NCBI GenBank assembly: GCA_035249405.1
Contig: DATFGN010000037.1
Span: forward strand, 1 to 41,231
Direction of reading: 5' to 3'
DNA: 41,231 bases
Origin: Gemmatimonadales bacterium
GTDB lineage: Bacteria; Gemmatimonadota; Gemmatimonadetes; Gemmatimonadales; GWC2-71-9
The number at the start of each line of letters is the position of its first letter. The stretch's first letter is position 1. Positions 4,032 through 32,884 of this stretch are shown piece by piece. The notes below the pieces were generated by a model. It was not told where the DNA came from, made no database searches, and saw nothing but the letters and a program-made list of their open reading frames with translations. The position numbers and the translations under genes are program-made.

Positions 4032-4178
4032 CAAGCATCTCCCAGTGACGCCTCTCGTACGGCGGCTGGAAGCCGCCGCTCGGCGCCTGCGGCGACGCGT
4101 CGAACGCAGCCTTCAGGCCGCGAACAATCGCACCGGACGTTGTTCAGGGTTTTCCTGGAGCTGAGGCACTCTCCGTTC

Positions 4179-12849: not shown

Positions 12850-13452
12850 CTACGCGGGGCTGAACGGCAGTTGCGCCAGCCTCTTGACCCTTCTCCCAGT
12901 GATCCGCAGGCCTACTTGGATGACGTTGTCCGTATAGTTGTCCTCCCTGACACGGCGCCGCCCGTTCCGTCGTTTTGGATTAGTCTCGGCCTGAAGAACG
13001 TAGTCACCATCAGGCAGGTCGGTGATGTCGACCCATTGGCAATCGAGATCCCGCGAGTAGAGGTCGTACCAGCCGGCAGATACGCCCTGGTTGTCACAGT
13101 TGAACCGCTTGCGCTTGCGAGCTACCGGACCCTTCCAACGAGTGTCTTCAAGGCAGAAGCCTTGCTTTTGGCCGCGTTTGCGCCCGCCACCGGATCCAAA
13201 GACTGTGTACTGGTTGAAACCCTTGAGGTGGTAGTGCTTGTGACAATCCGAGTACTCAAACCAGCGAGGGCGCTGTGTTGGGTCGCCGATGTGGAGGTCT
13301 TTGTTCCCCGCGTTCCAGACTCTGTAGTCGAAGCGCAAAAGCTTCCGTTTACCGGGCTTCGTGCATCTCTCCTTGACCGCACAATGTTTCTTCTCAAAAG
13401 TGCGAACCTGGATCTTGAACCGCCCAATCAGAGGAATCAAGTTCACGCCCAT
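12850..13452 (-). CDS. lysyl oxidase-like (LOX catalytic domain, copper amine oxidase with LTQ cofactor) protein
   Basis: Collinear with the animal LOX catalytic domain as I recall it. Matching blocks are LLRFDYRVWNAGNKD, CHKHYH (Cu-binding HxHxH), GQKQGFCLEDT (LTQ Lys context), GWYDLY (LTQ Tyr context), DCQWVDITDLPDGDY and DNYTDNV. GC is visibly lower than in the flanks. Confidence 0.85.
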   Translation of the reverse strand: MGVNLIPLIGRFKIQVRTFEKKHCAVKERCTKPGKRKLLRFDYRVWNAGNKDLHIGDPTQRPRWFEYSDCHKHYHLKGFNQYTVFGSGGGRKRGQKQGFCLEDTRWKGPVARKRKRFNCDNQGVSAGWYDLYSRDLDCQWVDITDLPDGDYVLQAETNPKRRNGRRRVREDNYTDNVIQVGLRITGRRVKRLAQLPFSPA

Positions 13453-13525: not shown

Positions 13526-14056
13526 TCAGTAGAGCACTCCGAGTTGAATCGTCACGAACCGTGTCACCGGCTTCGATTGCACCTGGTGCAGGTCGAGCCC
13601 GAACTCCAGCCTGATCACACCGACGGATACTTGCTCACCGACACCGATGTTGAGCCCGGACTTCGCGGGTCCCGACTTTGGCCAATAGACGCCAGGGCCG
13701 GCCTGCACATATGGTCGTGGCCCGGCGCCTGGTGCGACAACCTGCAGGTTCACGGAAGCGTTAATCCAACGCGGATGCTCGATCCCCGTAGCAATCTCCG
13801 CAGTGAATTGGTTCAAACCCACCAACAGCTTCGCGTACAAGGCCGCACCAGTGGGAAGGCGCTTTTGTAGGCGATAACTCAGGTCCACGTCGACGTGGAT
13901 GTTGGCGTCACTGAGTGAATCGAGAATCCCCAGCGGGTGCGCCGAGCCGATGTGAAAACTGGAACTGACCCTTTTCACGCGCGCCTGCGCCTGCGTCAGC
14001 CCTCCAAAGCCGGCAACAACCAGTAGGACGAGGAGACTGCGGGCTGCGGTCTTCAT
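13526..14056 (-). CDS. small outer-membrane beta-barrel protein (OmpW/OmpX-size class)
   Basis: Start taken at ATG 14056 (MKTAARSLLVLLVVAGFGGLTQAQA signal peptide); a GTG lies at 14062. The sequence shows an alternating beta-strand pattern and ends ...IQLGVLY with an aromatic terminal residue. It lies 73 nt upstream of the LOX-like gene on the same strand. Confidence 0.7.
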   Translation of the reverse strand: MKTAARSLLVLLVVAGFGGLTQAQARVKRVSSSFHIGSAHPLGILDSLSDANIHVDVDLSYRLQKRLPTGAALYAKLLVGLNQFTAEIATGIEHPRWINASVNLQVVAPGAGPRPYVQAGPGVYWPKSGPAKSGLNIGVGEQVSVGVIRLEFGLDLHQVQSKPVTRFVTIQLGVLY

Positions 14057-14260
14057 GGCCACGCCTCGGTAGTGGAGTTGTTAGGCATGCTAGCCGAGGG
14101 TGGTCAATTGGCGGTCAATCGATCCCGCCTACGTACGTATCTCGATCATCGATTGTTCGCGACGTGAGACGACGTGTCTCAGGGTTGACCACATCGCTCG
14201 CATCTTACGCGTCCAGTTTTTCGCGACGGCGCAGTCGTATCGATTGGAGAGGAGGCACGT

Positions 14261-14593
14261 ATGTCCGGCTGGTTCGAGCTGAAGCCCGCAGTAGGCGGTC
14301 AGTTCATGTTCAATCTCAAAGCAGGGAACGGGAAGGTCATCTTGACGAGCGAGCTGTACAAGGCGAAGCAAAGCGCGAAAAAGGGTATCACCTCGGTCAA
14401 GAACAACTCCCCCAACGATGGTCGCTACGATCGTCAGACCGCGAGCAATGGCGAGAAGTACTTCGAGCTCAAGGCTGGCAGCGGTGAATCCGTGGGGATC
14501 AGCGAGCTGTACACCGGCCCGTCTGGTATGGAGAAGGGCATCGCCGCCGTGAAGAAGGCGGCACCCGGTGGAACGATCAAAGACCGTACATAG
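14261..14593 (+). CDS. YegP family protein (two DUF1508 repeats)
   Basis: Strong SD GGAGAGGAGG lies upstream of the ATG. Two repeats are present: FELKPAVGGQFMFNLKAGNGKVILTSELYKAKQSAKKGITSV and YFELKAGSGESVGISELYTGPSGMEKGIAAV. Confidence 0.9.
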   Translation: MSGWFELKPAVGGQFMFNLKAGNGKVILTSELYKAKQSAKKGITSVKNNSPNDGRYDRQTASNGEKYFELKAGSGESVGISELYTGPSGMEKGIAAVKKAAPGGTIKDRT

Positions 14594-17662: not shown

Positions 17663-17764
17663 AGGCCTTCATCATTTCGCCCAACGCCCTCACCGACCCG
17701 CTCCTTGTGCGAGCCGGTGCCGGCGGGCAACTTGCCATGCCGCGATGCACCCGTTCCCCTCGCG

Positions 17765-19966
17765 ATGATCGATCTGCAGGAGCTCCGCGCCGCGCTCGCG
17801 CCGGACTACGTCATCGAGCGCGAGCTGGGCCGCGGCGGCATGGCCACCGTGTACCTCGCCCACGAAAGCAAGCACGATCGGCGCGTCGCCATCAAAGTGA
17901 TGCGCCAGGAGATCACCGCTGAGCTCGGCGACGATCGGTTCCTGCGCGAGATCCGCATCGCGGCCCGGCTCTCTCACCCGAACATCGTGCCGCTGCTGGC
18001 TTCGGGAGCAGCGGACTCGGCCCTCTACTATATCATGCCGTTCATCGAGGGGGATTCGCTGCGCGCTCGCCTGGACCGCGAGGGCCGCCTTTCCATCCCC
18101 GCGACGATCCGCATCGCCCGGCAGGTCGCCGCCGCCCTCACCTACGCCCACGCACAAGGTGTGGTGCACCGCGACATCAAGCCGGAAAACATCATGCTCA
18201 CGGGCGACGCCGCCGTGGTCGCCGATTTCGGCATCGCGACGGCCCTCCAGGAGGCGGGCTCGCCCCGGCTCACCCAGACCGGCGTGAGTATCGGCACTCC
18301 GATCTACATGAGCCCCGAGCAGACGACCGGAACCGTGGATGGCCGCAGCGACGTGTACTCACTCGCCTGTGTCGTGTTCGAGATGCTCACCAGTCAACCC
18401 CCGTTCACCGGACCGACTGCGCTGGCGATCATGATGCGGCACGCCACCGAGCCGGTGCCCTCGCTGCAGTCGATTCGCTCGGAAGTCCCGGTCGGCATGG
18501 GGCGGGCACTCGGCCGAGCCCTGAGCAAGATGCCGGCCGATCGGTTCGCCACGCCGGACGAGTTCGTCGCGGCGCTCGAATCGCCGGACGCGACGCACGC
18601 GCCGCCCAGCCCGAACACCGTGGACTCGATCGCGGTCCTGCCCTTCAAAGACCTGAGCCGCGAGCAGGACCAGGCGTATCTCTGCGAAGGGATCGCCGAG
18701 GAGCTGCGCGATGCCCTCATGCGAATGGGCTCGCTGCGCGTCGCTTCGCGACACCTGGACGTGCGCGAGGGCGGGCGGCGACTGGACGTGCGCAGCATCC
18801 TCGAGGGGAGCGTGCGGGTGGCCGGCGACCGGCTCCGCATCTCCGTCACGCTCTCGAGCGTCGAGACCGGCTTCCAGCTCTGGAGCGAGCGCTACGACGA
18901 GGCGATGACCGATGTGTTTCAGGTCCAGGACGACATCGCCCGGCGCGTCGTGGCTCGGCTGCTCCCCGACGCTGACCGCGGCGGCGCCCCGGTCGTCGCA
19001 CCCGGCACCGCCGATCTCGAGGCGTATCGGGCGTACCTGCGGGGCCGCCATTTCGCGCAGCGCCGTACCGCAGCAGATCTAGAGAAAGCGATCGAGTCTT
19101 ATGAAGCCGCGCTGGCCCGCGAGCCCGGCTTCGCGCTTGCCGCCGCCGGCCTGGCGGATACCTGGTTCGTCCTGCCGGTCTACGGGGCGCTGGCACCCGA
19201 TGCCGCGATGCCCAAAGCCAAAGGAGCGATTGAGCGTGCCATGACGCCGGGCCGGGAGAGCGCCGAGGCGCTGGCCGTCCTGGGGTCGATCCGCGCCGTC
19301 TACGAGTGGGACTGGGCCGGCGCGGAGACCGATTTCCGGCGCGCCCTTTCGCTCAGCCCCGGGAATCCGATGGTCCTGCATCGCTACGCGGTGAACTGCC
19401 TGCTGCCGCTCGGACGTTTCGCCGAGGGGCTCGCACGCCTGGAAGAGGCGCTGGAGCGCGACCCCATGTCGCTGCTCGCGGCTACGAGCCTCGGGCTGGT
19501 GCACTACCTCGAACGACGGACGGCCGCGGCCGTGTCGGCCTACCACGGCGTGCTCGAGCTCGATCCCGGTTTCGGGCTGGCGCGCTATCTCCTGGGCGTG
19601 GCGCTGTTGGAAACCGCGACACCCGCCGACGCCGTACCCGTACTCGAAGCCGCCTGCGCCGCAGGACGCAGCGCCGAGTCCGTCGCCGCTCTTGCTGTCG
19701 CCTTCGCGACGGTCGAGCGCACTGAAGACGCCGAACGACTACTCGCAGAGCTCGAGGGTCTGGCGACCACGCGCTACGTGTCACCGGTATTGCTTGCCCA
19801 AGCCCAGTTGGCGCTGCGACGGCCGGAGTTGGCATTGGATCAGCTGGAGCGCGCTTGCGAGCGGCGCGCCTCGGAGCTGGCGTGGCTCGCCGTCCGCCCG
19901 ACCTGGGCTCCGCTGCGCGGCGCTCCCCGATTCCAGGATCTGCTGCGTCGCGTGAAACTCGCGTGA
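17765..19966 (+). CDS. Ser/Thr protein kinase with TolB-N-like domain and TPR repeats (paralog of 14688..17006)
   Basis: Start taken at ATG 17765 (MIDLQELRAALAPDYVIERELGRGGMATVYLA); the longest ORF starts at 17705. Motifs are HRDIKPENI, DFG and MSPEQ. The TolB-N-like block is IAVLPFKDLS...LEGSVRVAGDRLRISVTL. The C-terminus has TPR-like repeats. Confidence 0.9.
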   Translation: MIDLQELRAALAPDYVIERELGRGGMATVYLAHESKHDRRVAIKVMRQEITAELGDDRFLREIRIAARLSHPNIVPLLASGAADSALYYIMPFIEGDSLRARLDREGRLSIPATIRIARQVAAALTYAHAQGVVHRDIKPENIMLTGDAAVVADFGIATALQEAGSPRLTQTGVSIGTPIYMSPEQTTGTVDGRSDVYSLACVVFEMLTSQPPFTGPTALAIMMRHATEPVPSLQSIRSEVPVGMGRALGRALSKMPADRFATPDEFVAALESPDATHAPPSPNTVDSIAVLPFKDLSREQDQAYLCEGIAEELRDALMRMGSLRVASRHLDVREGGRRLDVRSILEGSVRVAGDRLRISVTLSSVETGFQLWSERYDEAMTDVFQVQDDIARRVVARLLPDADRGGAPVVAPGTADLEAYRAYLRGRHFAQRRTAADLEKAIESYEAALAREPGFALAAAGLADTWFVLPVYGALAPDAAMPKAKGAIERAMTPGRESAEALAVLGSIRAVYEWDWAGAETDFRRALSLSPGNPMVLHRYAVNCLLPLGRFAEGLARLEEALERDPMSLLAATSLGLVHYLERRTAAAVSAYHGVLELDPGFGLARYLLGVALLETATPADAVPVLEAACAAGRSAESVAALAVAFATVERTEDAERLLAELEGLATTRYVSPVLLAQAQLALRRPELALDQLERACERRASELAWLAVRPTWAPLRGAPRFQDLLRRVKLA

Positions 19967-21081
19967 GACCCGACGTGGAACTGCGGCGACGCCTGGCGAC
20001 GGACCGCCGCGCTATCGCACAGTCATGGGGCTGCGGAAGGCCTCTCGGTCGGGTGCTCGAGGTGCGGAGCGGGCTCTCGGATCCACATGACGGCGGGCGC
20101 ACCGTCGCGGTCGTACGCTTCGCATCGGGATTGCGCGTCGTCTACAAGCCGCGCCCGGTGGGACTGGAAGCCGCGTTCCATCGCTTGGTGGCCTGGTGGA
20201 ACGAGCGGGCGGGCCCCGTCGCGGTATTCGCGCCAGACGTAGTGGACCGAGGCACTTACGGGTGGATGGAGTTCGTGACGCATGAGGCGTGCATCGATCA
20301 TGAAGCGGCGAGTCGCTATTGGGAGCGCGCTGGGGCGTTGATCGCACTCGCCGACCTGCTTGACGCTACCGACCTGCATCACGGCAACGTCATTGCCCAC
20401 GGGGAATACCCGGTGCTCGTCGATCTCGAAACGCTGCTCCAGCCGCGTCGGCCGCGCGCAGCGCGTTCGCTTCTGAGCACTGGGCTCGTGCCGGCCTGGA
20501 TCCGTGGCCCCGATGGGGGCAGCTACGACGTGAGCGGCTTCGGTGCCATCGCCCCACAGCGATACAAGGGAGCCACGGTCCCAGTGCGCGAGAATGTGGT
20601 TCGGGTCGGAACGGATATCGTCTCAGCTGCCGAGTTTGCCGATCAGATGGAGGCGGGATTTCTTCGCGCGGGAGCGCTGCTGTGCGAGCGGCTGCCGGAG
20701 TTACTCACCCAGTTGCAAGAGTTTCGCGGGCTCGAAGTCCGCGTGATGCTGCGACACACCGAGACCTACCGCGCGGCGATGGAGGACGAGAGTGCGCTTG
20801 GAAGGATGACCGCGGCCGAGCGCGCGGCACTGCGGCGTGGCGACATCCCGCGCTTCGTCGCCTCGACCGATGCGAGCTATGAAGCCTTGATCGCGCGGGT
20901 CAATCGGCTCGATCCGGCGCGCTACGAGGAGCAGGCTCGGCTGCTCAGGACGGCGCTGGTGTTATGGGGTCTGGGTGGCGCGCTGCTTGTGCAGCAGCAC
21001 CATGAAGATGAGGTCAAAAATGGCGGTACCCACGAAAAGAAACAGGACAAACGCGCGCATGCTGGGAGCATTCTCTTGTAG
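19963..21081 (+). CDS. stand-alone DUF4135 (LanM-type lanthipeptide dehydratase/kinase-like) domain protein, no LanC domain
   Basis: GTG 19963 overlaps the kinase stop (GTGA); the ORF is open from 19855. Blocks appear in LanM order: SGLSDPHDGGRTVAVVRFASGLRVVYKPRP, GWMEFV, TDLHHGNVIAHGEYPVLVDLETL, RVMLRHTETY and RRGDIPRF. The last 120 nt overlap the convergent terpene-cyclase gene. Confidence 0.7.
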   Translation: MRPDVELRRRLATDRRAIAQSWGCGRPLGRVLEVRSGLSDPHDGGRTVAVVRFASGLRVVYKPRPVGLEAAFHRLVAWWNERAGPVAVFAPDVVDRGTYGWMEFVTHEACIDHEAASRYWERAGALIALADLLDATDLHHGNVIAHGEYPVLVDLETLLQPRRPRAARSLLSTGLVPAWIRGPDGGSYDVSGFGAIAPQRYKGATVPVRENVVRVGTDIVSAAEFADQMEAGFLRAGALLCERLPELLTQLQEFRGLEVRVMLRHTETYRAAMEDESALGRMTAAERAALRRGDIPRFVASTDASYEALIARVNRLDPARYEEQARLLRTALVLWGLGGALLVQQHHEDEVKNGGTHEKKQDKRAHAGSILL

Positions 21082-21681
21082 CAGAAAGATGTTCGCGAGG
21101 AAGATCACGCAGTTCCCGCTCACGCGGAACCAGGATGCCCCCCAGCCGAGCCCGTGCAGGTCGGGTCGGGCGAACAAAAAGAAGATGAAGAGCAGGCTCA
21201 TCACGAAATTGATGATCAGCCCGCTCAAGGGAGCGGCCGCGTCGGGGTAGAATTGCGCGAACGCGAAGTTGCCCGCCGCGGCGAGCACCAGAGCTCCCAC
21301 CAGCACGAACGGGTAATACTGCCGGATCTGGGCGAACGCCTGCTCGGCACGACCGTAGCGGAACAACTGCCAGACGATGAAGGCATCGAGTGCCACCCAC
21401 GCCAGAATCATGGCGACTTTCACCACATCCACAGTACCGTTGTCGCAGCGCGGCGGCTGCACCAGGCTGTACTGCAGCTCCCAGGTGAAGTTCATCACGA
21501 TGGCGACCAGCGGGAGGCCGTAGGTGCGCTGTCGGAAGCACCGACGGATAATCAGAACGTAGGCGATCGCCCAGCACAGGTCCCCGAAGACCGTGAGGTT
21601 GAGCCAGAAACCATTGTCCAGCAGGTGGTGGGGGAAATCCCCGCGGGGGATTTCCACCACCGCCGCGTGACAAGGGTTCAA
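20962..21681 (-). CDS. Pyr4/PaxB-like transmembrane terpene cyclase (7 TM)
   Basis: About 7 hydrophobic helices are visible. The block RQRTYGLPLVAIVMNFTWELQYS matches my recollection of the conserved (K/R)xRTYGM..x..N(I/F)(A/T)WE(I/F)xY block of fungal Pyr4/PaxB-type cyclases, and the size fits (239 aa). The TTG start at 21681 overlaps the stop of the upstream peptide ORF (TTGA). GTG at 21660 or 21657 are alternative starts. Confidence 0.7.
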   Translation of the reverse strand: MNPCHAAVVEIPRGDFPHHLLDNGFWLNLTVFGDLCWAIAYVLIIRRCFRQRTYGLPLVAIVMNFTWELQYSLVQPPRCDNGTVDVVKVAMILAWVALDAFIVWQLFRYGRAEQAFAQIRQYYPFVLVGALVLAAAGNFAFAQFYPDAAAPLSGLIINFVMSLLFIFFLFARPDLHGLGWGASWFRVSGNCVIFLANIFLLQENAPSMRAFVLFLFVGTAIFDLIFMVLLHKQRATQTP

Positions 21682-21884
21682 GTCGAGATGCCCGCCGCGG
21701 TCCTATAGTGCCCGTTCACCTTTTCCAGGGCTTTCCAGTTGAGTGACTTCAGCGAGCGCTCGAGTTTCGGAGTCGCCTTGACTCCGGCGGCCTTGAGTGC
21801 CTTGGCGGGGCTTCTCTTGAGTTGCGTCCGAAACTTCTTGTTCTTCATCGCCTTGCGGACCAGCTCGTCGAATTTCATCGCCAT
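21678..21884 (-). CDS. 68-aa Lys-rich small protein with NHLP/Nif11-like leader region (candidate RiPP precursor)
   Basis: ATG 21884 is preceded by GGAGGA with a 7-nt spacer. The sequence is MAMKFDELVRKAMKNKKFRTQLKRSPAKALKAAGVKATPKLERSLKSLNWKALEKVNGHYRTAAGIST. Residues ~5-42 resemble the NHLP leader consensus as I recall it (..IIAKAWKDxxFKQELLxNPKAALxKEFGVKLPEG..). The ORF-track version (21995) is an N-terminal over-extension. Confidence 0.6.
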   Translation of the reverse strand: MAMKFDELVRKAMKNKKFRTQLKRSPAKALKAAGVKATPKLERSLKSLNWKALEKVNGHYRTAAGIST

Positions 21885-21972
21885 GGGATCTTCCTCCAAG
21901 GTTCGAAGCGAGTGTGGAGTTGCGGCACTAATCGCGCGGACAACGTTTACCCCAAGCGCTCGGGGTGTCAAC

Positions 21973-22884
21973 TCATGACGGCCATACGTCGGCAAGGGTC
22001 GCGAGCGTGCGGTAGCCCGGAATCAACTGTTCCGCCCGCTCCGCGAGCACGGCTCGCTCGGTGTCCAGATGCCGCACGAGCTCCAGGCCGCCCAGCGCCC
22101 GGGCGTCGTCGGCCAGCACCTCATACCAGGATTCGATCGACGCGACTCCCCAGGCGAATCCTTCTCGCAGGATCCAGGCAGTGGCCGGCTCCTTCCGCTT
22201 CCGCCGTCGCTTGGCCTCGGACAGGAAATAGGTCGTTCGCCCCTGATCCTCCAGGTCATCCTGCCAGTCGAAGACATCGTCCGTCATCTGGGCGATGGCG
22301 CCGAGCCGGTCACACAAGGCGAGCCGGGCGGGAAGGGCGTCGGGTTTCCCGTGGCGCAAACACGTCGCGACGATGGGGATCTTCGCGGGGCTGACCTTCA
22401 GCGCGGCGACGCGCTGGAACTGCTCGAGTGTGACGGTCTTGAGTCGCGCGTCCATGACGGTCGCTTCCACCGCGCCGAACCAGAGGTTGGGGAACCACTC
22501 CCAGAAGGGGTGCTCTGGCTCGAAGTACTTGGCGTACGCCTGCTGGAACTCCGCATGGAAGAACCCGGCCGCCGGCAATAGTGAGGGGTCGGCATTGGGA
22601 TCCGTGTCCATGACGTCGTCCAACAAACGAATGTGGCAGTAGCCCGTGATGGTCGAATAGGTCAGATCGTCGTAGAAGGCGTCATCGGCTTTCGCGCCCA
22701 AGGTCTTACCCACCCATTCGGGAAGCGTGAGGATGGGCAGGGTGCGCCGCTGCCGGAAATATTCGGCGGGATCGTCGGTCGGTGACAGGCGCTCGAGCCA
22801 CGCGAACACGCGCTCGCTCAGCTGCGGCGTGGCCCGGAGCCGAGCCTTCATGCGTGCGAACGCCGTGTCGATCCGGGTGGTCAT
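21973..22884 (-). CDS. squalene/phytoene-synthase-like (isoprenoid synthase fold) enzyme; possible prenyltransferase
   Basis: ATG 22884 overlaps the stop of the upstream STAND gene (ATGA). Two Asp-rich motifs are spaced as in the SQS/PSY family: YCHIRLLDDVMDTD (compare FCRxxDDxVD) and AQMTDDVFDWQDDLEDQGRTTYF (compare FQLTNIxRDxxEDxxxGRxYLP). The ORF-track start at 22971 lies inside the upstream gene. Confidence 0.7.
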   Translation of the reverse strand: MTTRIDTAFARMKARLRATPQLSERVFAWLERLSPTDDPAEYFRQRRTLPILTLPEWVGKTLGAKADDAFYDDLTYSTITGYCHIRLLDDVMDTDPNADPSLLPAAGFFHAEFQQAYAKYFEPEHPFWEWFPNLWFGAVEATVMDARLKTVTLEQFQRVAALKVSPAKIPIVATCLRHGKPDALPARLALCDRLGAIAQMTDDVFDWQDDLEDQGRTTYFLSEAKRRRKRKEPATAWILREGFAWGVASIESWYEVLADDARALGGLELVRHLDTERAVLAERAEQLIPGYRTLATLADVWPS

Positions 22885-25800
22885 GAGGCGCGTGGCGCCA
22901 GGAGTTGTTGGGCGAGGGCCGCGGGGTAAGGCATTGCCAATTGCTCGCCCAGCTCGATCGCAGCGCGCCACGCCGCCGTGGCCGCTTCATGCTTTCCCGC
23001 CAGCTGCTTCGCTCGTCCGCGCATGAGCGCGAGCCAGGGCCGCGCAATCGGGAACACTCGGGCGAGGCGGCGCAGCGCCCCCAAAGCAGCGCGCAGTGCG
23101 CGAGCCCGGGCGGCGCCGCCCGCGCCTGCTTGACCGCCTGGTTGCTCCAGCAGCTGGAGCAGCACGTCGGCTGTCCCGGACGCATCGAACACGTAGCCAT
23201 GGTAGGACGGCATGAGCTTCTCGAGCAACGCTGCGGCCTCGAGGGCGGCCCGTTCAGCGCCCGCCGCATCACCGGCGCGCAGCTGTGTGAGCGCCCGCAC
23301 GGTTCGCATGGGGAGATCACCGTGTACCGTCCCGACGTTCCAGCGGATCCCGGCCAACTCCTCCGTCGCGGTCGCGGCTTCGGCGTCCCGACCGAGCATG
23401 AGGAGGCAATGCACCCGACGGTATACAGCGCTCGCCTGTCCCCGCGGATCGTTGCGCCGCGTCGCCGAGCGATACAACTGGCCCGCGAGGTCGAGACTGG
23501 TCTCAAAACGCCCCTGGAGGAAATGGAGATCGACGAGAAACTGAGTGCCGTCGTCCCAGCGGCGCGCGTCGCCCAGGCGCTCGCTTTCCCTGGTGACGAG
23601 ATCGAACAGGGCCCGCGCTTCACCCCAGGCGGCGACGCCGAGTTTGTACGCGCCCACGCTGAGCGCGGTCCAGATCGTGGCGGGGACGTCACCCGAGGCA
23701 CGGGCGGTCTCGAGCGCGCGGCGGCAGTACGCGTCGGCCTGTTTCGACAGCGGGATGAAGCCGAGGATCGCGCCCACGGTGGCATACCCGCGCGCCAGCT
23801 CCGGGGACGGGCCCGCCAGTTCGGCGAGATTGAGGCCGCACATCGCGCTGTGGAGGCAGGCGAGGTTCGCATCGCGCAGGTAGAACACTTCGACCAGCGC
23901 TTCGTGCGCCTGAGCCGCACTGAGCAAGACGTCGCGCTCCGCGTCGCGCCGCCCGACAAAACGCCGCGGCAGCAGCCGGTGCATCATCTGGCGAGCGGCC
24001 TGGCCGGCCAGTCCGCCCACGAGCCTCGCGCTGCCGCGCGGCATCGGCTCGCCGGCGAGGGCCAGGCCACGACGCAGATGCGCCTCGCCGTCTTCGTAGC
24101 GGGACCAGTTCACGCAGGCCCGGCCCGCCTGCAGCTCCCAGCGCCGCCGCTGGCTCGGTGTGGCGTCGGGGGAGAGCGCGAGGGCGTCGCGGAACAAGCC
24201 GACGGCCTCCGCGTTCGCGTAGCTCCGGAAGGCCTGCTCTCCCGCCCGATCCAGATAGTGGACCGCTTTGGGAATCACCTCGGCTCGCCGCCAATGGAAG
24301 GCGAGCAGCGGCAGGACCGGCTCGAGATCCGCTCCGTGCCGCGCCTCGAGCCAGGCGCCGAGGGCCCGGTGCAGGTCACGCCGTTGCGCGTACAAGATGA
24401 GATCGTAGGCGACCTGCTGCGTGATGGCGTGGCGGAAGGAGTAGCGGGAATCGACGCCGGCCACCTCGGCGTGAATGAGGTCCAGTCGCTCGACCGCCGC
24501 GAGTGAGGCCGCGAGCTCCGCGTCGCTCGTCGAAACGGGGAACACGTCGCGCAGCATCGCGACGGGGAAGGTTCGTCCGATCACACTGGCCACCTTGACC
24601 ACGAACTGCTCCGACTGACTCAACCGGTCGATGCGACTGGTGACGATTCCCTGGAGCGTCTGCGGGAGACCGCGAGCGGCCAGAGCGTCGCCGAACGCGG
24701 GAGCCAGCTCGCGGGAGGGATCGGTCAGCTCGCAGCGGCCGTCCGTGACCTTGATCAGCCCATAGTCCCGCAGCGCGTACACGAGCTCTTCGCTGAAAAA
24801 CGGGTTGCCCGCGGCCCGGTCGTGGACCAGGGCCAGGACCTGCTCAGGGACGGCGCGCACGCCGAGACGGTCCGCGAGCAACCGGTCCACCACTTCGGGT
24901 CCGAGCGGTGCAAGCCGCAGCCGTCGCTCACCCGCGAGCCCCGCGAGCGCCACGAAGTCGGCGGGCGGGTCGTCGATGGGACGGCTCGTTACCACAAAGA
25001 GCAGGGTCGGGATGGTGCGGGTGGCGGCGAGCAGGAGCGCCCACGAGGACGAGTCGAGCCACTGGGCATCCTCGATCGTCACGACGACCGGACCGGTGTC
25101 TCCCAAGTGGGTCAAGGCGGCGAGCAGCAGGTTGCGGACGTTCGCGGCGCGCACCTCGTCGGTCATGGCGGCAATGAGGTCGTTGCCGTCGAGCTTCAGG
25201 CCGAACAGGGGCCCGAGCAGGGGCACCATGGGGGCCTGTTCCGCTCGCAAGCCCAGGCGAGTGGAGAGGAGTGCGGCGTCGGCGCCGGCGCCGGCGAGCG
25301 ATCGCAGGGGGCGGATCCAGGCGTGGTAGGCCGTCCCCTTCTCGATGTCGTCTGCCGCGCCGTCGATCACTCGCGCGCCACGTCGGGTCGCGCTGGCCCG
25401 GAGATACTCGACCAGCCGCGACTTCCCGATGCCCGGTTCGCCCTCGATCAGGATGACGCCCCCTTCGCGCCGGGTGACCAGGGCTTCGACGGCGCTGTCG
25501 AGCGCCGCGCACTCCCGCTCGCGGCCGCGCAGTCGCCCGTCGTCGTCGCCCGCCCGGGTCGGCGATGGGGCGCCCTGCTCAGCGGACGGCCGATGGACGA
25601 CGACCGGTTGCTCGCGCCCTTTGACGCGGATCGGCGCGAGGGGGGTGAAGCGCAGCGCCGGATGGCGGCGCGCCTGCTCCTCAGTCACCGCATCGCAGAG
25701 CACCGACCCGGCGGCGTGTTGCATCAGTCGCGCGGCCAGGTTCACGGGTGCGCCGGCCACGGTGTATTGCCGGCGGCTGGCCGTACCGTAGACACCGCAA

Positions 25801-26930
25801 TAGAGGAGGCCAGTGGCTGTCCCGACTGAGGGAGTGAGCTCCTGACGCTGCAGCGCGTCATGCATCGCGAGTGCGGCGAGCGTGCCCCGCGCGGCGTCGT
25901 CCTCGTGGGCGCGGGGAGGCAGACCGAAGGCGGCGACGAGAGTCGTGCCTTTGTCGTCGGTGAGGAGCTGATAGACGCTGCCCTCGAAACGCGCTACGAC
26001 TTCCTGCAGCGCCGCCACGGCGCCCTGGATCTTGCTCAAGGCGTCGGGCCGCCGCGGGGTATCGATCGCGCCGAGGCCGCAGAACACCATCGTGACACGG
26101 CGAAACTCGCCGAGCCACTCGCCCAGCCCGGCGTCGACGCGAGCCGCGATGACTTCGGGGACGAGTCGGCGCAGCTCGTCGATGCGGTCGGAAGTGAGCG
26201 CCGGCCGGTGCGGCGCGATGTCCGTGACCCGCGTCAGGACGCGGGCGAGCCGGAGCGCGTTGCCCTCGAGCGGTGTTCCCTGGGCGCGCGACCCCAGCAG
26301 GGCGGCCGCTTCAGGCGAGACGACGACCTCGCCTTCATGTGCCAGCCGGTCGGCGGCGGTGGCCTGCGCGATAGGCGCGCCTTGCGCGAGGGACAGCCAG
26401 CGTCCGGCCAGGCCGCCGAGGCGCAGGTGGGCGATCGGCCCCGCACCGATCGTGATTCGCATCCGCAACGCCCCGGTCGCGGGCGGATCGGCGGCCTCCT
26501 GGAGGCGCAGGCCGCACGCGGCCGCGGCCGTGACGGCAGCCACGAGGTCTCCGCCGTCATCATCGAGCCAGGCAACGAGCGCGGCGTCGCCCGCGAAGGC
26601 GAGAATGTCGCCCCCTCGGGCGAGCACGATGTCAGTGAGCCGGCCGAAGTGCGCGTCGATGATACGCGAGAGCTCTTCAGCACCTCTCGGCCCCTGGACG
26701 CTCAAGCGTTCCGCTAGGGCAGTGAAACCGGCGAGGTCGGCGAAGAGGATGGCGGCGGGGTGGACTTCCATGTGGGGGCCGGGCGGATGGCCGGAGGGCG
26801 CGGCTACGTCGCGCAGCGCGAGCGCCGGCAGGTAACTGGCGAGCGCCGCGACGCCCGGTGTCACATCGCCGCTGGAGCTCGGTGGCATCGTAGGGCGCAA
26901 GCATAACGTGCGATGCGAAAGGGCCGCCAC
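22881..26930 (-). CDS. STAND-type signalling protein: two class III adenylate/guanylate cyclase-like domains + AAA_16 P-loop NTPase + TPR-like C-terminus
   Basis: The first cyclase-like domain has AAILFADLAGFTALAE...FAGDAALVAW. The second has VTMVFCGLGAI...LLTDDKGTTLVAAFG...YTVAGAPVNLAARL. Walker A is EGEPGIGKSRL and Walker B-like is VVVTIEDAQWLDSSS. About 600 aa of helical TPR-like repeats follow. The start is GTG 26930, with ATG 26891 as an alternative. Confidence 0.9.
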   Translation of the reverse strand: MAALSHRTLCLRPTMPPSSSGDVTPGVAALASYLPALALRDVAAPSGHPPGPHMEVHPAAILFADLAGFTALAERLSVQGPRGAEELSRIIDAHFGRLTDIVLARGGDILAFAGDAALVAWLDDDGGDLVAAVTAAAACGLRLQEAADPPATGALRMRITIGAGPIAHLRLGGLAGRWLSLAQGAPIAQATAADRLAHEGEVVVSPEAAALLGSRAQGTPLEGNALRLARVLTRVTDIAPHRPALTSDRIDELRRLVPEVIAARVDAGLGEWLGEFRRVTMVFCGLGAIDTPRRPDALSKIQGAVAALQEVVARFEGSVYQLLTDDKGTTLVAAFGLPPRAHEDDAARGTLAALAMHDALQRQELTPSVGTATGLLYCGVYGTASRRQYTVAGAPVNLAARLMQHAAGSVLCDAVTEEQARRHPALRFTPLAPIRVKGREQPVVVHRPSAEQGAPSPTRAGDDDGRLRGRERECAALDSAVEALVTRREGGVILIEGEPGIGKSRLVEYLRASATRRGARVIDGAADDIEKGTAYHAWIRPLRSLAGAGADAALLSTRLGLRAEQAPMVPLLGPLFGLKLDGNDLIAAMTDEVRAANVRNLLLAALTHLGDTGPVVVTIEDAQWLDSSSWALLLAATRTIPTLLFVVTSRPIDDPPADFVALAGLAGERRLRLAPLGPEVVDRLLADRLGVRAVPEQVLALVHDRAAGNPFFSEELVYALRDYGLIKVTDGRCELTDPSRELAPAFGDALAARGLPQTLQGIVTSRIDRLSQSEQFVVKVASVIGRTFPVAMLRDVFPVSTSDAELAASLAAVERLDLIHAEVAGVDSRYSFRHAITQQVAYDLILYAQRRDLHRALGAWLEARHGADLEPVLPLLAFHWRRAEVIPKAVHYLDRAGEQAFRSYANAEAVGLFRDALALSPDATPSQRRRWELQAGRACVNWSRYEDGEAHLRRGLALAGEPMPRGSARLVGGLAGQAARQMMHRLLPRRFVGRRDAERDVLLSAAQAHEALVEVFYLRDANLACLHSAMCGLNLAELAGPSPELARGYATVGAILGFIPLSKQADAYCRRALETARASGDVPATIWTALSVGAYKLGVAAWGEARALFDLVTRESERLGDARRWDDGTQFLVDLHFLQGRFETSLDLAGQLYRSATRRNDPRGQASAVYRRVHCLLMLGRDAEAATATEELAGIRWNVGTVHGDLPMRTVRALTQLRAGDAAGAERAALEAAALLEKLMPSYHGYVFDASGTADVLLQLLEQPGGQAGAGGAARARALRAALGALRRLARVFPIARPWLALMRGRAKQLAGKHEAATAAWRAAIELGEQLAMPYPAALAQQLLAPRAS

Positions 26931-26971: not shown

Positions 26972-28009
26972 ATGAAACACAAGCCGCCGGTGTGCTGCAC
27001 CGTCCCCACGCACCTCCTGCAGCAGCTCGCCCAGGCGATCGACCCGGGCGTGAGCCGCCGTGCGCTCGACGCGTTGGGGTTCTCGGCGCGGGCCCGCGCG
27101 TTGCGCGCCGAGCTGGGCACGCTGCCTCCGTTGCCCACCATCGCCGCGCCGAACGGGGGCCGGTTCCGCGAAGTGTACGACGCGCGCCACGGTGGGCCGC
27201 GCACCCTGCCGGGTCGCCTGATGCGGTCGGAGCGGGACCACCCGGTGCGTGATCAGTCGGTGAACGAGGCCTACGTGAACGCGGGCCACGCGTATGCGTT
27301 CTACCGCGCAGTCTTCGGACGCAATTCGCTGGACGACCGGGCGATGGTACTCCGCTCGAGCGTTCACCTGTCGCGCAAATTGAACAACGCCTTCTGGGAC
27401 GGCAGCCAGATGGTGTACGGCGACGGTGACGGCGAGATCTTCGTGCACCTCCCGCGGCCGCTCGAGGTCGTGGCGCACGAGCTGACCCACGGCGTCATCG
27501 CGCATACGAGCGGCTTGGTGTATCGGGGCGAGGCGGGGGCGTTGAACGAGAGTTTCGCCGACGTCATGGGGTCGCTGGTGAAGCAGTGGCATCATCGGCA
27601 GACGGCGCGGCGTGCGGATTGGCTCATCGGGCGACAGATGATGGGGCCGGCCCTGCGGGCGCGTGCCCTCAGGACGCTCACCGGCCGGAAAGCCTTCGAG
27701 GGCGACCCGCTGCTCGGCACCGATCCCCAGCCCAAGCATTACCGGGATCGGATTCGGATCCCCGACCCCGACGTCGCCGCCCACCTCAACTCCGGCATCC
27801 CCAATCACGCCTTCTACCTGGTCGCGACGCGGTTGGGCGGCTACGCCTGGACCCGTGCGGGGGCGATCTGGTACGAAGCGATGACCACGCTCCCGTCACG
27901 GTGCAACTTCGCGACCGCAGCCGGCCGAACGATTGCCATCGCCAGGCGACGCTTTGGGTCGCCCGTGGCGGCCGTGGTGGGGCGTGCTTGGAGGGACGTG
28001 GGCGTGTAG
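26972..28009 (+). CDS. M4 (thermolysin family) metallopeptidase, protealysin-like, no signal peptide
   Basis: Zinc site is VVAHELTHGV (HExxH) plus GALNESFADV (third ligand Glu). FWDGSQMVYGDGDG is an M4 core motif. The short N-terminal propeptide has CCTVPTHLLQQL, resembling the PPL-type motif of protealysin-like proteases. Confidence 0.9.
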   Translation: MKHKPPVCCTVPTHLLQQLAQAIDPGVSRRALDALGFSARARALRAELGTLPPLPTIAAPNGGRFREVYDARHGGPRTLPGRLMRSERDHPVRDQSVNEAYVNAGHAYAFYRAVFGRNSLDDRAMVLRSSVHLSRKLNNAFWDGSQMVYGDGDGEIFVHLPRPLEVVAHELTHGVIAHTSGLVYRGEAGALNESFADVMGSLVKQWHHRQTARRADWLIGRQMMGPALRARALRTLTGRKAFEGDPLLGTDPQPKHYRDRIRIPDPDVAAHLNSGIPNHAFYLVATRLGGYAWTRAGAIWYEAMTTLPSRCNFATAAGRTIAIARRRFGSPVAAVVGRAWRDVGV

Positions 28010-29836: not shown

Positions 29837-31018
29837 GTGGATGCCAAGAATGCAGACTTGTCCGCGCTCCAAATCGACCGCGCCCAGGCCCAAACGAGCG
29901 GCCGTGGTCTTTCTCGCTGGCTGCTGATCGGTGTACCGGTCGTCGCCCTGCTGGTCGTGACCGCGGCGGTCCTGGCCCGCAGCCTCGGCGGCGCCATCCC
30001 CGTGCGCCTCTCTCCCGCCACCCTGGTCGCACCCGCACAGGCGAACGTCGTTACCATCGCGAGCGGCTACGTGGTGGCTCAGCGCAAGGCTGCCGTGGCC
30101 TCCAAGGCCACCGGTCGCCTCGTGTTCCTCGGAGTAGTAGAGGGTGATCGCGTGCGCCAGGGGCAGGTGATCGCCCGCATTGAGGACTCGGACGTGAAGG
30201 CGCAGCTGGCCCAGGCGCAGGCGAATCTGCAGCTGGGCAACGCCGACCTGCGTGACGCCACCCGGGCGCTCGAGCGCCAGCGCATCCTGCGTGACAGCAA
30301 TCTCGCCTCCGCCGAGGCCTACGACGCCGCCGAGGCGCGTCATGCCAGGGTGCTGGCGACCATCGCGATCGCCCAGGCAGGCGTCGACGCGGCCCAGGTG
30401 GCGCTCGAGAACACTGTGATCCGGGCGCCCTTTGCCGGCACCGTGCTCACCAAGAACGCCGACGTGGGCGAAGTGGTCGCCCCGCTCGCCGGCAGCGCCC
30501 TGTCCAAAGCCAACGTGGTGACGCTCGCCGACCTGGCGTCCCTGCAAGTAGAAGTGGACGTGTCCGAATCGAATATCGAGCAGGTCCAGGCGGGGCAGCC
30601 GTGCGAGATCGTGCTCGACGCGTACCCTGATGTACGCTATCCCGGCACGGTGGCCAAGATCGTCCCGACGGCGGACCGTGCCAAAGCGACGGTCCAGGTG
30701 AAAGTGGCGTTCAATCGGTACGATGCCCGCGTGCTGCCCGAGATGAGTGCCAAAGTACATTTCCTGCCCCGCGAGGAGCCGGCGGCGCGCGCCGACACGG
30801 TGCCGGTGCTGACGGTGCCGGCCAGCGCGGTGGTGTTACGTGACGGCCATTCCGTTGTGTATACCGTGTCGTCGGGCCGCGCCGTGGAGCAGGCGGTGGT
30901 CGTGGGCCGGCGCGTGGGCATGGGGGTCGCCGTGCTGCAGGGCCTGGCCGTGGGAACGCAGGTGATCGACAGCGTGGATGCCCGCATCCGGCGCGGCGTC
31001 AAAGTCAGACCGCCTTAA
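29837..31018 (+). CDS. efflux transporter periplasmic adaptor subunit (HlyD/MacA family)
   Basis: GTG start. There is an N-terminal TM anchor (WLLIGVPVVALLVVTAAVLA), biotinyl-lipoyl-like GRLVFLGVVEGDRVRQGQVIARIE, and a coiled-coil region. RAPFAGTVLTKNADVGEVV is typical of MFP adaptors. Confidence 0.9.
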   Translation: MDAKNADLSALQIDRAQAQTSGRGLSRWLLIGVPVVALLVVTAAVLARSLGGAIPVRLSPATLVAPAQANVVTIASGYVVAQRKAAVASKATGRLVFLGVVEGDRVRQGQVIARIEDSDVKAQLAQAQANLQLGNADLRDATRALERQRILRDSNLASAEAYDAAEARHARVLATIAIAQAGVDAAQVALENTVIRAPFAGTVLTKNADVGEVVAPLAGSALSKANVVTLADLASLQVEVDVSESNIEQVQAGQPCEIVLDAYPDVRYPGTVAKIVPTADRAKATVQVKVAFNRYDARVLPEMSAKVHFLPREEPAARADTVPVLTVPASAVVLRDGHSVVYTVSSGRAVEQAVVVGRRVGMGVAVLQGLAVGTQVIDSVDARIRRGVKVRPP

Positions 31019-31033
31019 GAGGAATCGCACCAG

Positions 31034-31704
<671 letters not shown>

Positions 31705-31708
<4 letters not shown>

Positions 31709-32871
31709 AAATCCTGTCGATCATCATCCGCAACACGTTCCGCCACCGGCTGCGCAGCATCTTGACCGTCCTGGGCATCGCCACCGCGGTGATGGCGTTC
31801 GGCCTGCTGCGCACCATCGTGGGCGCGTGGAACGCGGGCGTCGCCGCCTCATCGGCCAACCGGATGATCGTGCGCCACCGCGTGTCGTTCATCTTCCCGC
31901 TGCCCACCGCGGACCGCCAGGCGATCGCCAAAGTCCCCGGCGTCACCAATGTGGCGATGGCCAACTGGTTCGGTGGCGTTTACGGCGACCCGAATGACTT
32001 CAAGAATTTCTGGCCGCGCTTCGCGGTCGACCCCGCGACCTGGTTCCAGGTGTATCCGGAGTTCGTGGTGCCGCCCGATCAGCTGGCGGCGTTCGCCGCC
32101 GATCGCTCCGGCTGCATCATCGGGGCGAAGCTCGCGGCCCAGCACGGCTTCAAGATCGGCGACGTCATCACCATGAACGGGGACATCTTCCCGGGGCCGT
32201 GGCAGTTCACAGTGCGCGGCATCTATCACGGCAAGGAGCCGTCCAACGACGAGACGCAGATGTTTTTCCAGTGGGACTACCTGGACCAGCAGGTCACGCA
32301 GCGGGAGCCCGGGCGCACTGTGGGCGCCGGCTGGTACGTGCTCCAGGTCGGTTCCCCTGACGACATGCCGCGCGTCGCGAGTGCCATCGACGCGGAGTAC
32401 GAGAACTCACAGGCGCCCACCAAGACCGAGAGCGAGCGCGCGTTTCAGCAGGGCTTCGTGTCGATGTCGAGCGCCATCATCACCTCGCTCGAGGTGATCT
32501 CGTTCGTAATCATCGGGATCATCCTGCTCGTGCTCGCCAACACGATCGTGATGGCGGTGCGCGAGCGCACCCGCGAGTACGCGGTACTGAAGACCATTGG
32601 CTTCACGGGGCGTCACCTCGCCGCGTTCATTCTGGGTGAGTCCCTGTTGATCGGCCTGGTGGGCGGGCTCGTGGGCGTGCTGCTCACGTTCCCGATCGTG
32701 CGCGGCTTCGGACAGGCGCTTCCCACGTTCTTCCCCGTGATCAACGTGGCTCCGATTACGATCGTTTTGGCGCTGCTGGCGGCCGCCGTGTGCGGCGTCG
32801 CCGCCGCGACGCTGCCGACCATCCGCGCCGTGCGCCTGTCGATCGTGAACGGCCTGCGGACCGTCGGATAG
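31705..32871 (+). CDS. ABC transporter permease (MacB_PCD + FtsX family)
   Basis: ATG 31705 overlaps the ATPase stop (ATGA). The N-terminus [29 protein letters not shown] is typical of FtsX/MacB permeases. A periplasmic domain is followed by 3 C-terminal TM helices. The ORF-track start at 31282 is an out-of-context extension. Confidence 0.9.
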
Positions 32872-32884
32872 AGGAGCCCGACAG

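Follow-up and report, generated by a model that had tools for sequence, protein, structure and literature searches.

A candidate gene cluster for a terpenoid-bearing ribosomal peptide in the genome of a soil Gemmatimonadales bacterium

Organization of the locus

The window analysed here comprises 41,231 nucleotides of contig DATFGN010000037.1, part of the metagenome-assembled genome of a Gemmatimonadales soil bacterium, and contains a compact candidate cluster for a ribosomally synthesised and post-translationally modified peptide (RiPP) that would bear a cyclised terpenoid. Leftwards-transcribed genes (minus strand) code for a cyclase-domain STAND regulator (22881..26930), a 303-residue enzyme resembling isoprenyl diphosphate synthases of the trans type (trans-IDS; 21973..22884), a 68-residue peptide of the nitrile hydratase-like leader peptide (NHLP) clan (21678..21884) and a 239-residue Pyr4-like protein with seven transmembrane helices (20962..21681). 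A rightwards-transcribed gene for a 368-residue DUF4135 protein, which resembles the dehydratase domain of LanM enzymes (19975..21081), converges on the last of these.

The gene junctions are tight. The TGA stop codon of the STAND gene sits within the ATGA start of the enzyme gene, and the TGA of the peptide gene overlaps the TTG start codon of the cyclase gene within a TTGA. The peptide ATG at 21884 is preceded, 7 nt upstream, by a GGAGGA Shine-Dalgarno sequence that was read from the DNA at 21892..21897 (minus strand). Both overlaps, the Shine-Dalgarno site, the 68-residue open reading frame (ORF) and the protein with seven transmembrane helices had been described in an earlier note on this DNA, and each lies where that note placed it. 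At each of the eight close homologous loci the peptide stop and the cyclase start overlap as TTGA or GTGA, and a synonymous change of ACT to ACG in the last Thr codon of the peptide swaps one valid cyclase start codon for another; a Shine-Dalgarno-like GGAG also lies upstream of the peptide ATG in homologous loci. The DUF4135 gene starts with GTG at 19975 according to independent gene calls, and its 3′ end overlaps that of the cyclase gene by 120 nt (20962–21081).

A comparable convergent overlap of the cyclase and DUF4135 genes occurs at the related loci L002, L007, L008, L011 and L022. The last ~40 residues of the DUF4135 ORF may be functional, or the frame may merely be open opposite a GC-rich gene.

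As the earlier note had stated, the sizeable ORFs of the window that were scanned include no cyclodipeptide synthase (CDPS), polyketide synthase (PKS) or non-ribosomal peptide synthetase (NRPS). Rfam and tRNA scans of the window gave no matches, and a promoter and terminator scan gave nothing exceeding shuffled expectation.

A trans-IDS-like enzyme

The 303-residue protein has no Pfam or NCBIfam matches at all, and PF00494 (SQS_PSY) is not matched even at E ≤ 1. An AlphaFold2 model made with 28 homologues (predicted local distance difference test score, pLDDT, 93.5) has the class-I isoprenoid fold, and its best 50 Foldseek matches in the PDB are all trans-IDS or Ord1, with no squalene synthase (SQS), phytoene synthase (PSY) or CrtM. 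Template-modelling (TM) scores of 0.6–0.67 are obtained with farnesyl (FPP), geranylgeranyl (GGPP) and octaprenyl diphosphate synthases, and hexaprenyl- to decaprenyl-diphosphate synthases are also among the best 50; identity to the synthases of nearest structure is only 12–20%. The earlier note had taken the protein for a member of the SQS/PSY group. Since PF00494 is not matched and the structural neighbours are trans-IDS, the enzyme is, as judged from sequence and model, trans-IDS-like and not phytoene-synthase-like, and is of the same kind as ComQ, PalQ, Ord1 and the P domain of ChrPC; an SQS/PSY or DmtC1-like identity is ruled out on the same grounds.

The enzyme has two Asp-rich motifs, DDVMD at residues 89–93 (22606–22620, minus strand) and Q-x-x-DDVFDWQDD (22255–22290, minus strand), of which DDxxDWxxD occupies residues 202–210. 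Residues D89, D90 and D93 of the first and D203, W207 and D210 of the second do not vary among 29 homologues with identities as low as 30%, and the longer patterns RLLDDxxD and QxxDDxxDWxxD are invariant or nearly so in the family alignment. Q199 (in AQMTDD), upstream of the second motif, is nearly invariant among the 29 homologues. Canonical isoprenyl diphosphate synthases also carry a Gln before the second Asp-rich motif, and Q199 is therefore non-discriminating. A Gln just before this motif has been described as a feature of trans-IDS-like peptide prenyltransferases (PMC13290415). When a profile of the enzyme family is compared with PDB sequences, only IspA is matched, weakly (E = 0.03) and at the second Asp-rich motif. 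Chain-elongating synthases bind isopentenyl diphosphate (IPP) through GGKRxR and RRG motifs, and neither is visible on inspection of the family alignment.

An identical (100%) Gemmatimonadales protein is labelled 'class 1 isoprenoid biosynthesis enzyme' at NCBI. We propose the 303-residue enzyme as a candidate peptide prenyltransferase. The family is well represented in metagenomes, with 223 clusters (at 50% identity) at E ≤ 1e-30 and 604 at E ≤ 1e-10.

A Pyr4-like membrane cyclase

The block RQRTYGLPLVAIVMNFTWELQYS, by which the earlier note recognised a Pyr4-type protein, occurs in the 239-residue cyclase, and profile searches bear the recognition out: PF25129 (Pyr4-TMTC) is matched at 80.2 bits against a cut-off of 27, over profile positions 22–222 of 227, and the same domain is present in 37 of 37 cyclase homologues. 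The AlphaFold2 model (pLDDT 75) has seven helices, and a hydropathy scan gives six clear segments together with a less hydrophobic segment that bears E68. This residue (in NFTWE; 21478–21480) and D223 (21013–21015) are shared by all 13 sequences compared, the lowest identity being 30%. By residue position they are putative counterparts of E63 and D218, the active-site residues of Pyr4 (PMC6486709). The 239-residue protein is thus clearly recognisable, from its sequence, as a predicted Pyr4-like transmembrane class II terpene cyclase. Foldseek searches of the PDB with the model return only generic folds with seven transmembrane helices (KDEL receptor, cystinosin and SWEET; TM score ~0.55, E ≥ 0.025), and no solved Pyr4-like structure was found there.

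A stand-alone LanM-type dehydratase domain

The convergent gene, which the earlier note had passed over, codes for a protein that matches PF13575 (DUF4135) with 260 bits. On the full-length LanM model TIGR03897 it covers positions 113–415 of 932 (251 bits against a cut-off of 304), and it aligns to the dehydratase domains of LicM2 (168–481) and CylM (247–374). The motifs YKPR (20140–20157), DLHHGN (20371–20388), VDLETL (20419–20436), RVMLRHT (20740–20769) and GDIPRF (20839–20856) are all on the plus strand, and the YKPR Lys and the patterns DxHxxN, VDxE, RVxxRx(T/S)xxY and GD(I/V)PxF are retained in 10 of 10 DUF4135 orthologues. We take the RVxxRx(T/S)xxY pair to be the Arg/Thr phosphate-elimination residues of LanM. 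The gene is present at all 12 Gemmatimonadota loci that bear the cyclase, although the L009 contig contains only its 3′ end.

No LanC-like cyclase domain or ORF is present in the window and the peptide has no Cys, so that the protein would be a stand-alone Ser/Thr dehydratase domain and not a lanthipeptide synthetase; without Cys in the peptide no thioether rings are possible. The lack of LanC and the overlap with the cyclase gene are also what a truncated LanM pseudogene might present, which is ruled out by the conserved stand-alone orthologues: those of other Gemmatimonadota loci are called at ~337–419 residues and have all of the catalytic motifs. From these similarities the DUF4135 protein is predicted to be a LanM-type kinase and phosphate-elimination domain and is a conserved partner in the cluster.

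An NHLP-clan peptide

On NF038399 (Os1348 family, NHLP clan), whose cut-off is 40 bits, the 68-residue peptide reaches 39.9 bits, and the orthologous peptides of related loci score 43.1–73.9 bits. Of the leader models suggested by the earlier note, TIGR03793 is matched at only 19.6 bits against a cut-off of 50.9. Pfam Frankia_peptide and the models for NHLP leaders are matched weakly. A profile built from 16 members of the family matches PDB entry 6LK7, an 85-residue NHLP-like protein, at E = 2e-8, and also matches nitrile hydratase alpha chains and NHLP leader peptides. By these profile matches the small ORF is predicted to code for an NHLP-clan (Os1348-family) peptide of the RiPP type.

The peptide gene is under purifying selection; pairwise dN/dS values are mostly 0.1–0.5 and the length is constant at 68 codons in eight loci. 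The ORF is also annotated by independent gene callers where the same sequence occurs in other assemblies. A chance ORF is ruled out by this conservation, the dN/dS values, the Shine-Dalgarno site and the independent calls.

Residues 1–45 form the NHLP-like part. The last ~20 residues (the C-terminal 18 in one count) vary between cluster types and are conserved within each, with the pattern LNWxxxxKVNxHY(K/R)xAxGIST in peptides of the window type. The only Trp of the window peptide is Trp50 (codon 21735–21737, minus strand), and the tail is GIST (21681–21692, minus strand). Trp50 is invariant at 12 of 12 loci with both cyclase and DUF4135 and in 10 further metagenomic peptides, and is also present at L024; its position is taken by Ala, Pro or His in peptides of Chloroflexota, Sorangium, Acidobacteriaceae and L004 (L004 and L013–L018). 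A Ser or Thr is among the last three residues in every family member except those of L004 and L005.

Related loci in other phyla

Searches with the enzyme and with the cyclase each gave a few dozen relatives on shared contigs, and yielded 23 distinct loci with readable DNA from Gemmatimonadota, Chloroflexota, Acidobacteriota and Myxococcota. All 23, the most distant having 32% enzyme identity, carry an NHLP-clan peptide homologue no more than ~2.5 kb from the enzyme gene, and a 66–73-residue ORF is found at the corresponding place on two further contigs. The earlier note had asked whether the gene order, small ORF included, is conserved: the ORF is, though the order varies. At least five layouts are present, namely enzyme-peptide-cyclase, peptide-enzyme-kinase, enzyme-HExxH protein-peptide-fusion protein, peptide-fusion protein-enzyme, and enzyme and peptide overlapping, and the enzyme and the peptide stay together where the cyclase is missing and where the genes are reshuffled. 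None of the 23 loci has a CDPS, PKS, NRPS, carotenoid or hopanoid gene; the replacement of the small ORF by such a scaffold gene, which the earlier note named as evidence against its reading, is thus not seen. The interpretation of the cluster as one for a terpenoid-modified RiPP is well supported by this comparison of genomes.

Twelve Gemmatimonadota loci, with enzyme identities from 88% to 32%, have the enzyme, the peptide, the Pyr4-type cyclase and a convergent DUF4135 gene, and most of them are headed by a STAND/cyclase gene. The Acidobacteriaceae locus L015 has STAND, enzyme, a 67-residue peptide and cyclase without DUF4135. One of the twelve, the Gemmatimonadales locus L003 (the same contig as L012), contains a gene for a FAD_binding_3 flavin monooxygenase (L003 9360–10553) that follows the cyclase gene by 2 nt, and the L003 peptide ends in ...DVSC in place of ...GIST; flavin monooxygenases are the usual epoxidase partners of Pyr4-type cyclases in meroterpenoid pathways. 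A distant Gemmatimonadota version, L019, has 32% enzyme identity, and peptides of its subgroup end in ...HPDTLGS, ...HPDTAFT or ...HPATFT. Directly upstream of the L019 enzyme gene, at 3973–6893, are genes for a methyltransferase dependent on S-adenosylmethionine and a protein of the S15 X-Pro dipeptidyl-peptidase family. Minimal metagenomic loci come in two layouts, with peptide and enzyme only, in either order, beside a kinase gene with tetratricopeptide repeats (TPR).

Anaerolineales and Caldilineaceae loci have the order STAND, enzyme, a 556–570-residue protein, a 66–68-residue peptide and a 640–655-residue protein, except that no STAND gene is visible at L014, where the contig begins within the enzyme gene. 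The 556–570-residue proteins (L013 7913–9613, L014 865–2535, L016 8082–9773 and L017 7945–9657) carry a cyclic-nucleotide-binding domain at the C-terminus; the L014 protein is the only one in which an HExxH motif ('HVIAHELAHH') was read. The metagenomic protein P0228 (848 residues) is a fusion of the enzyme with such an HExxH/cyclic-nucleotide-binding protein. An adenylate/guanylate-cyclase STAND gene heads three of the four loci, which suggests cyclic-nucleotide control of maturation or of leader cleavage in these Chloroflexota clusters.

The locus of Sorangium cellulosum So ce26 (NZ_CP012673.1, ~9.150–9.165 Mb) has the order peptide, 661-residue protein, enzyme and ATP-grasp protein. The proteins of 640–661 residues in Chloroflexota and Sorangium (L013 9946–11895, L014 2914–4881, L016 10236–12161 and L018 4977–6962) have no Pfam or NCBIfam match. 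Their N-terminal halves are weakly similar to the enzyme (E ~1e-7), and their C-terminal halves contain QRYDGSW, which is QW-like, and PPDxD(D/S)LG, which is invariant and DxDD-like; the best, yet weak, PDB matches of the C-terminus are squalene-hopene cyclase and drimenol synthase. These features suggest that a non-homologous soluble class II cyclase replaces the Pyr4-type enzyme in Chloroflexota and Sorangium. The proteins may be prenyltransferase/class II cyclase fusions like ChrPC.

Relation to known systems

The earlier note had supposed that a prenylated and then cyclised RiPP would be undescribed. Priority belongs elsewhere, as a 2024 paper (Hubrich et al., Chem 2024, 10:3224, as summarised in PMC13290415) reported RiPPs whose geranylgeranyl groups are cyclised, and only the combination of enzymes seems to be new here. 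In those systems NctPC and ChrPC, soluble proteins in which a prenyltransferase is fused to an MstE-like monodomain cyclase, act on NHLP/proteusin- or Nif11-type precursors; trans-IDS-like prenyltransferases modify Trp residues of RiPPs, and the P domain of ChrPC is trans-IDS-like (PMC13290415). The present cluster shares with them the ribosomal precursor, the predicted order in which a prenyl chain is first attached and then cyclised by a class II enzyme and, with ChrPC, the kind of transferase, and the Chloroflexota and Sorangium proteins of 640–661 residues look two-part in the same manner, on weak evidence. It is set apart, by the published descriptions, by a separate transferase and an unrelated Pyr4-type cyclase with seven transmembrane helices, and by the LanM dehydratase domain as an additional conserved partner.

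With ComQ/ComX, PalQ and Ord1 the enzyme has in common the trans-IDS class-I fold, the Asp-rich motifs, the Gln before the second of these and an adjacent ribosomal peptide, whose Trp is conserved in clusters of the window type, and Ord1, a Trp farnesyltransferase, is itself among the Foldseek matches. Unlike those enzymes it matches no Pfam or NCBIfam family, and the peptides of several relatives lack Trp. The 68-residue NHLP-clan precursor differs from the short pheromone precursor of ComX, and whereas the ring of the ComX and PalQ products closes on the indole, a separate enzyme would here cyclise the prenyl chain.

The cyclase belongs to the same Pfam family as Pyr4, PaxB, XiaH and DmtA1 and has their seven transmembrane helices and a conserved Glu and Asp that are putative counterparts of their acidic pair. 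Prenyl transfer would likewise come first and protonation-initiated cyclisation after it, and one relative has the flavin monooxygenase. The substrates of those cyclases are indoles, pyrones, diketopiperazines and quinolones, whereas the ribosomal peptide is the only candidate acceptor here, and in contrast to Pyr4-type meroterpenoid pathways (including DmtB1/DmtC1/DmtA1) the transferase is not UbiA-, ABBA- or phytoene-synthase-like. The drimentine pathway cited in the earlier note was correctly described (PMC6173783), though the transferase of the window is of another kind.

The DUF4135 protein resembles the dehydratase domain of class II lanthipeptide synthetases (LanM, such as CylM, LicM2 and ProcM), with an ATP-binding Lys, DxHxxN, DxE and an Arg...Thr pair. 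LanM enzymes often act on NHLP-type leaders, ProcM being one that takes NHLP/Nif11 precursors. The cluster differs from theirs in having no LanC-like domain and no Cys in the peptide, and the DUF4135 protein lacks approximately the first 110 model positions. The peptide is of the same small NHLP-clan family as Os1348 of Pseudomonas sp. Os17, the prototype of NF038399 (PDB 6LK7), which is linked to antibiotic activity and whose gene comes first in a putative modification gene cluster (PMC7726476). The Os1348 cluster has instead an acetyltransferase, a peptidase-like protein and a SagB-type dehydrogenase, and is without isoprenoid enzymes.

Literature searches on Pyr4 and RiPPs found no report of a peptide-linked Pyr4-type cyclase, nor of a LanM dehydratase domain in such a cluster or of this stand-alone enzyme family. 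Bacterial Pyr4-like cyclases were surveyed in a June 2026 paper that retained only those near terpenoid-biosynthesis genes; its main text mentions no peptide-linked group (PMC13307353), and as the enzyme has no Pfam domain the survey may have missed these clusters. The combination of a Pyr4-type membrane cyclase and a LanM dehydratase domain on a peptide appears to be unreported. If the interpretation is correct, this would be the first Pyr4-type integral-membrane terpene cyclase to act on a ribosomal peptide, and isoprenoid cyclisation would for the first time be paired with a lanthipeptide-type dehydratase domain. The comparison also defines a sizeable and wholly uncharacterised family of stand-alone trans-IDS-like enzymes and a three- or four-gene set for peptides with putative polycyclic lipid anchors; it extends natural-product potential to the Gemmatimonadota, and Sorangium cellulosum So ce26 is a cultured carrier of a related cluster.

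A predicted pathway and its alternatives

The genomic evidence inclines us to the view that this is a RiPP-type cluster for a peptide bearing a cyclised terpenoid. The 68-residue NHLP-clan peptide would be the substrate, and the 303-residue enzyme would ionise a C15 or C20 polyprenyl diphosphate at its two Asp-rich motifs and move the prenyl chain onto a residue within the C-terminal third of the peptide, with Trp50 the likeliest acceptor and the C-terminal Ser/Thr region the alternative. The lipidated peptide would partition into the membrane, where E68 and D223 of the Pyr4-type cyclase would protonate the terminal olefin to give a polycyclic terpenoid; in relatives with the flavin monooxygenase an epoxide would be protonated instead. 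The DUF4135 domain would make dehydro-amino acids by phosphorylation and elimination at Ser/Thr, probably those of the GIST tail, and the leader may be trimmed by a metallopeptidase. Regulation of the cluster would fall to the cyclase-domain STAND protein, possibly together with the kinase-TPR protein.

Trp50 is favoured because every characterised enzyme of the trans-IDS-like kind targets Trp (PMC13290415), but as a specific acceptor it is a tentative choice that we think somewhat more apt to be wrong than right. The central proposal of the earlier note, a ribosomal peptide as the likely prenyl acceptor ahead of a Pyr4-type cyclase, is supported by the conserved linkage of enzyme and peptide; the single Trp to which that note pointed is invariant only in the cyclase-plus-DUF4135 type and is replaced in several relatives. 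As a whole that note was right in substance and wrong on enzyme subclass, on priority and in overlooking the DUF4135 partner.

Several observations weigh against the predicted pathway. The Trp is changed to Ala or Pro in relatives whose enzymes are 40–46% identical, and one of these, L015, has a Pyr4-type cyclase (without DUF4135); the acceptor is then either a residue other than Trp or one that varies from subfamily to subfamily. Trp50 is inside the stretch that aligns to the folded, crystallised Os1348 domain, the peptide is conserved from end to end with no hypervariable core, and no leader cleavage motif of the Gly-Gly type was found in it. The window peptide falls 0.1 bit under the NF038399 cut-off, no prenyl-diphosphate synthase gene was found in the cluster, and the enzyme resembles the fusion proteins of other phyla only weakly (E ~1e-7).

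Full-length conservation of this sort is scaffold-like, unlike that of a leader followed by a variable core, and would suit a different route in which the LanM-type domain converts C-terminal Ser/Thr to dehydroalanine or dehydrobutyrine and, once the chain is cyclised, a peptidase frees a small terpenoid-amino acid from the peptide. The nucleophile that takes the place of IPP would then be the dehydro alkene, or the oxygen or carboxylate of a C-terminal Ser/Thr. A Ser/Thr near the C-terminus is found in all peptides but those of L004 and L005, whereas Trp is not universal; the DUF4135 catalytic residues are intact with no LanC or Cys to consume dehydro residues; and peptidases of various families are encoded nearby in different lineages (M4, the HExxH protein and S15). 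Acidobacteriaceae, Chloroflexota, Sorangium, L004 and L024 nevertheless keep the enzyme and peptide without DUF4135, trans-IDS-like peptide prenyltransferases are known only with a Trp acceptor (PMC13290415), and the route is drawn from chemical analogy, so that we regard release from a scaffold as improbable. Its most specific form is more doubtful still: the dehydro-amino acid itself would be the acceptor, the enzyme treating the 1,1-disubstituted alkene as an IPP mimic and forming a C–C bond, in effect elongating an isoprenoid chain on a peptide, with cyclisation and release by a peptidase from a reusable, pearlin-like scaffold. If true, it would represent new C–C prenylation chemistry and a new ribosomal way to meroterpenoids.

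The product might also be a non-peptidic terpenoid or meroterpenoid made from a metabolite encoded elsewhere, in which case the peptide would serve only the LanM-type domain as substrate, or would act as a chaperone or regulatory subunit. The characterised bacterial Pyr4-like cyclases all act on small-molecule meroterpenoids, as do XiaH, TylF, GroF and that of the zig pathway (PMC13307353), and DmtA1 on prenylated diketopiperazines (PMC6173783); Os1348, the prototype of the peptide family, was crystallised as a folded dimer (PMC7726476). Against this, neither the window nor the 23 loci contain a scaffold-forming gene (CDPS, PKS, NRPS or aromatic pathway), the enzyme-peptide pair is retained without the cyclase and in shuffled orders, and the peptide and cyclase genes are translationally coupled; we consider a non-peptidic product unlikely, if a little less so than release from a scaffold. 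The least credible of the alternatives is that the 303-residue protein is an ordinary elongating isoprenyl diphosphate synthase or a class I terpene synthase, with transfer carried out by an unlinked enzyme. In structure it comes nearest to FPP, GGPP and octaprenyl diphosphate synthases and its second Asp-rich motif aligns to that of IspA, but identity is only 12–20%, neither PF00348 nor an NCBIfam synthase model is matched, and the basic IPP-binding motifs of such synthases are not visible in the family alignment. Class II cyclases of the Pyr4 type moreover do not accept diphosphates directly, and the cluster has no other transferase.

Regulatory and neighbouring genes

The STAND protein has Pfam Guanylate_cyc and AAA_16 domains and a TPR-like C-terminus, and gives a partial match to TIGR03903, a kinase/cyclase fusion of thiazole/oxazole-modified microcin (TOMM) systems. 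Homologues with 37–82% identity head the cluster in Gemmatimonadota, Anaerolineales and Acidobacteriaceae loci, and the protein is probably the regulator of the predicted pathway, translationally coupled to the enzyme gene through the ATGA.

Divergent from the regulator is a gene for an M4 (thermolysin-like) metallopeptidase (26972..28009, plus strand; Pfam Peptidase_M4 and M4_C). Such a gene adjoins the cluster at L001, L002, L007, L008 and L011 and is absent from L003, L009, L010 and L019–L021; with an association that is only moderate, a role as leader peptidase is possible. On the other side, a Hanks-type Ser/Thr kinase with TPR (17705..19966, plus strand; Pfam Pkinase and TPR) ends 8 nt before the DUF4135 start. 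A kinase-TPR gene abuts the enzyme/peptide pair at L001, L010, L019, L021, L004 and L024, those of relatives being located at L004 2299–4605, L024 2528–4471, L019 11481–13859 and L021 7273–9660. Ser/Thr kinases are abundant in these genomes, with three in the window, and because they are so abundant the adjacency may be one of chance; the kinase-TPR protein is a possible cluster regulator, of uncertain association.

Downstream of the M4 gene and a TPR protein gene, a rightwards-transcribed group (29837–34054) codes for an HlyD-family adaptor, an ATP-binding cassette (ABC) ATPase and two MacB-type permeases. These proteins could export the product; no such genes were found beside the cluster in the related loci examined.

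A patch of lower GC content (0.61 compared with ~0.67) contains three ORFs, at 12850–13452 (minus strand), 13526–14062 (minus strand) and 14261–14593 (plus strand). They code for a bacterial homologue of lysyl oxidase (PF01186, 121 bits), a 178-residue protein without a family match, whose N-terminal hydrophobic stretch is like that of a signal peptide, and a YegP-like protein with DUF1508 in tandem. Further to the left, two adjacent rightwards-transcribed genes (4140–8413) code for large proteins with RCC1-repeat beta-propellers and bacterial immunoglobulin-like domains. They come after genes for a zinc-ribbon Ser/Thr kinase and a trypsin-like protease and are unrelated to the terpenoid cluster.

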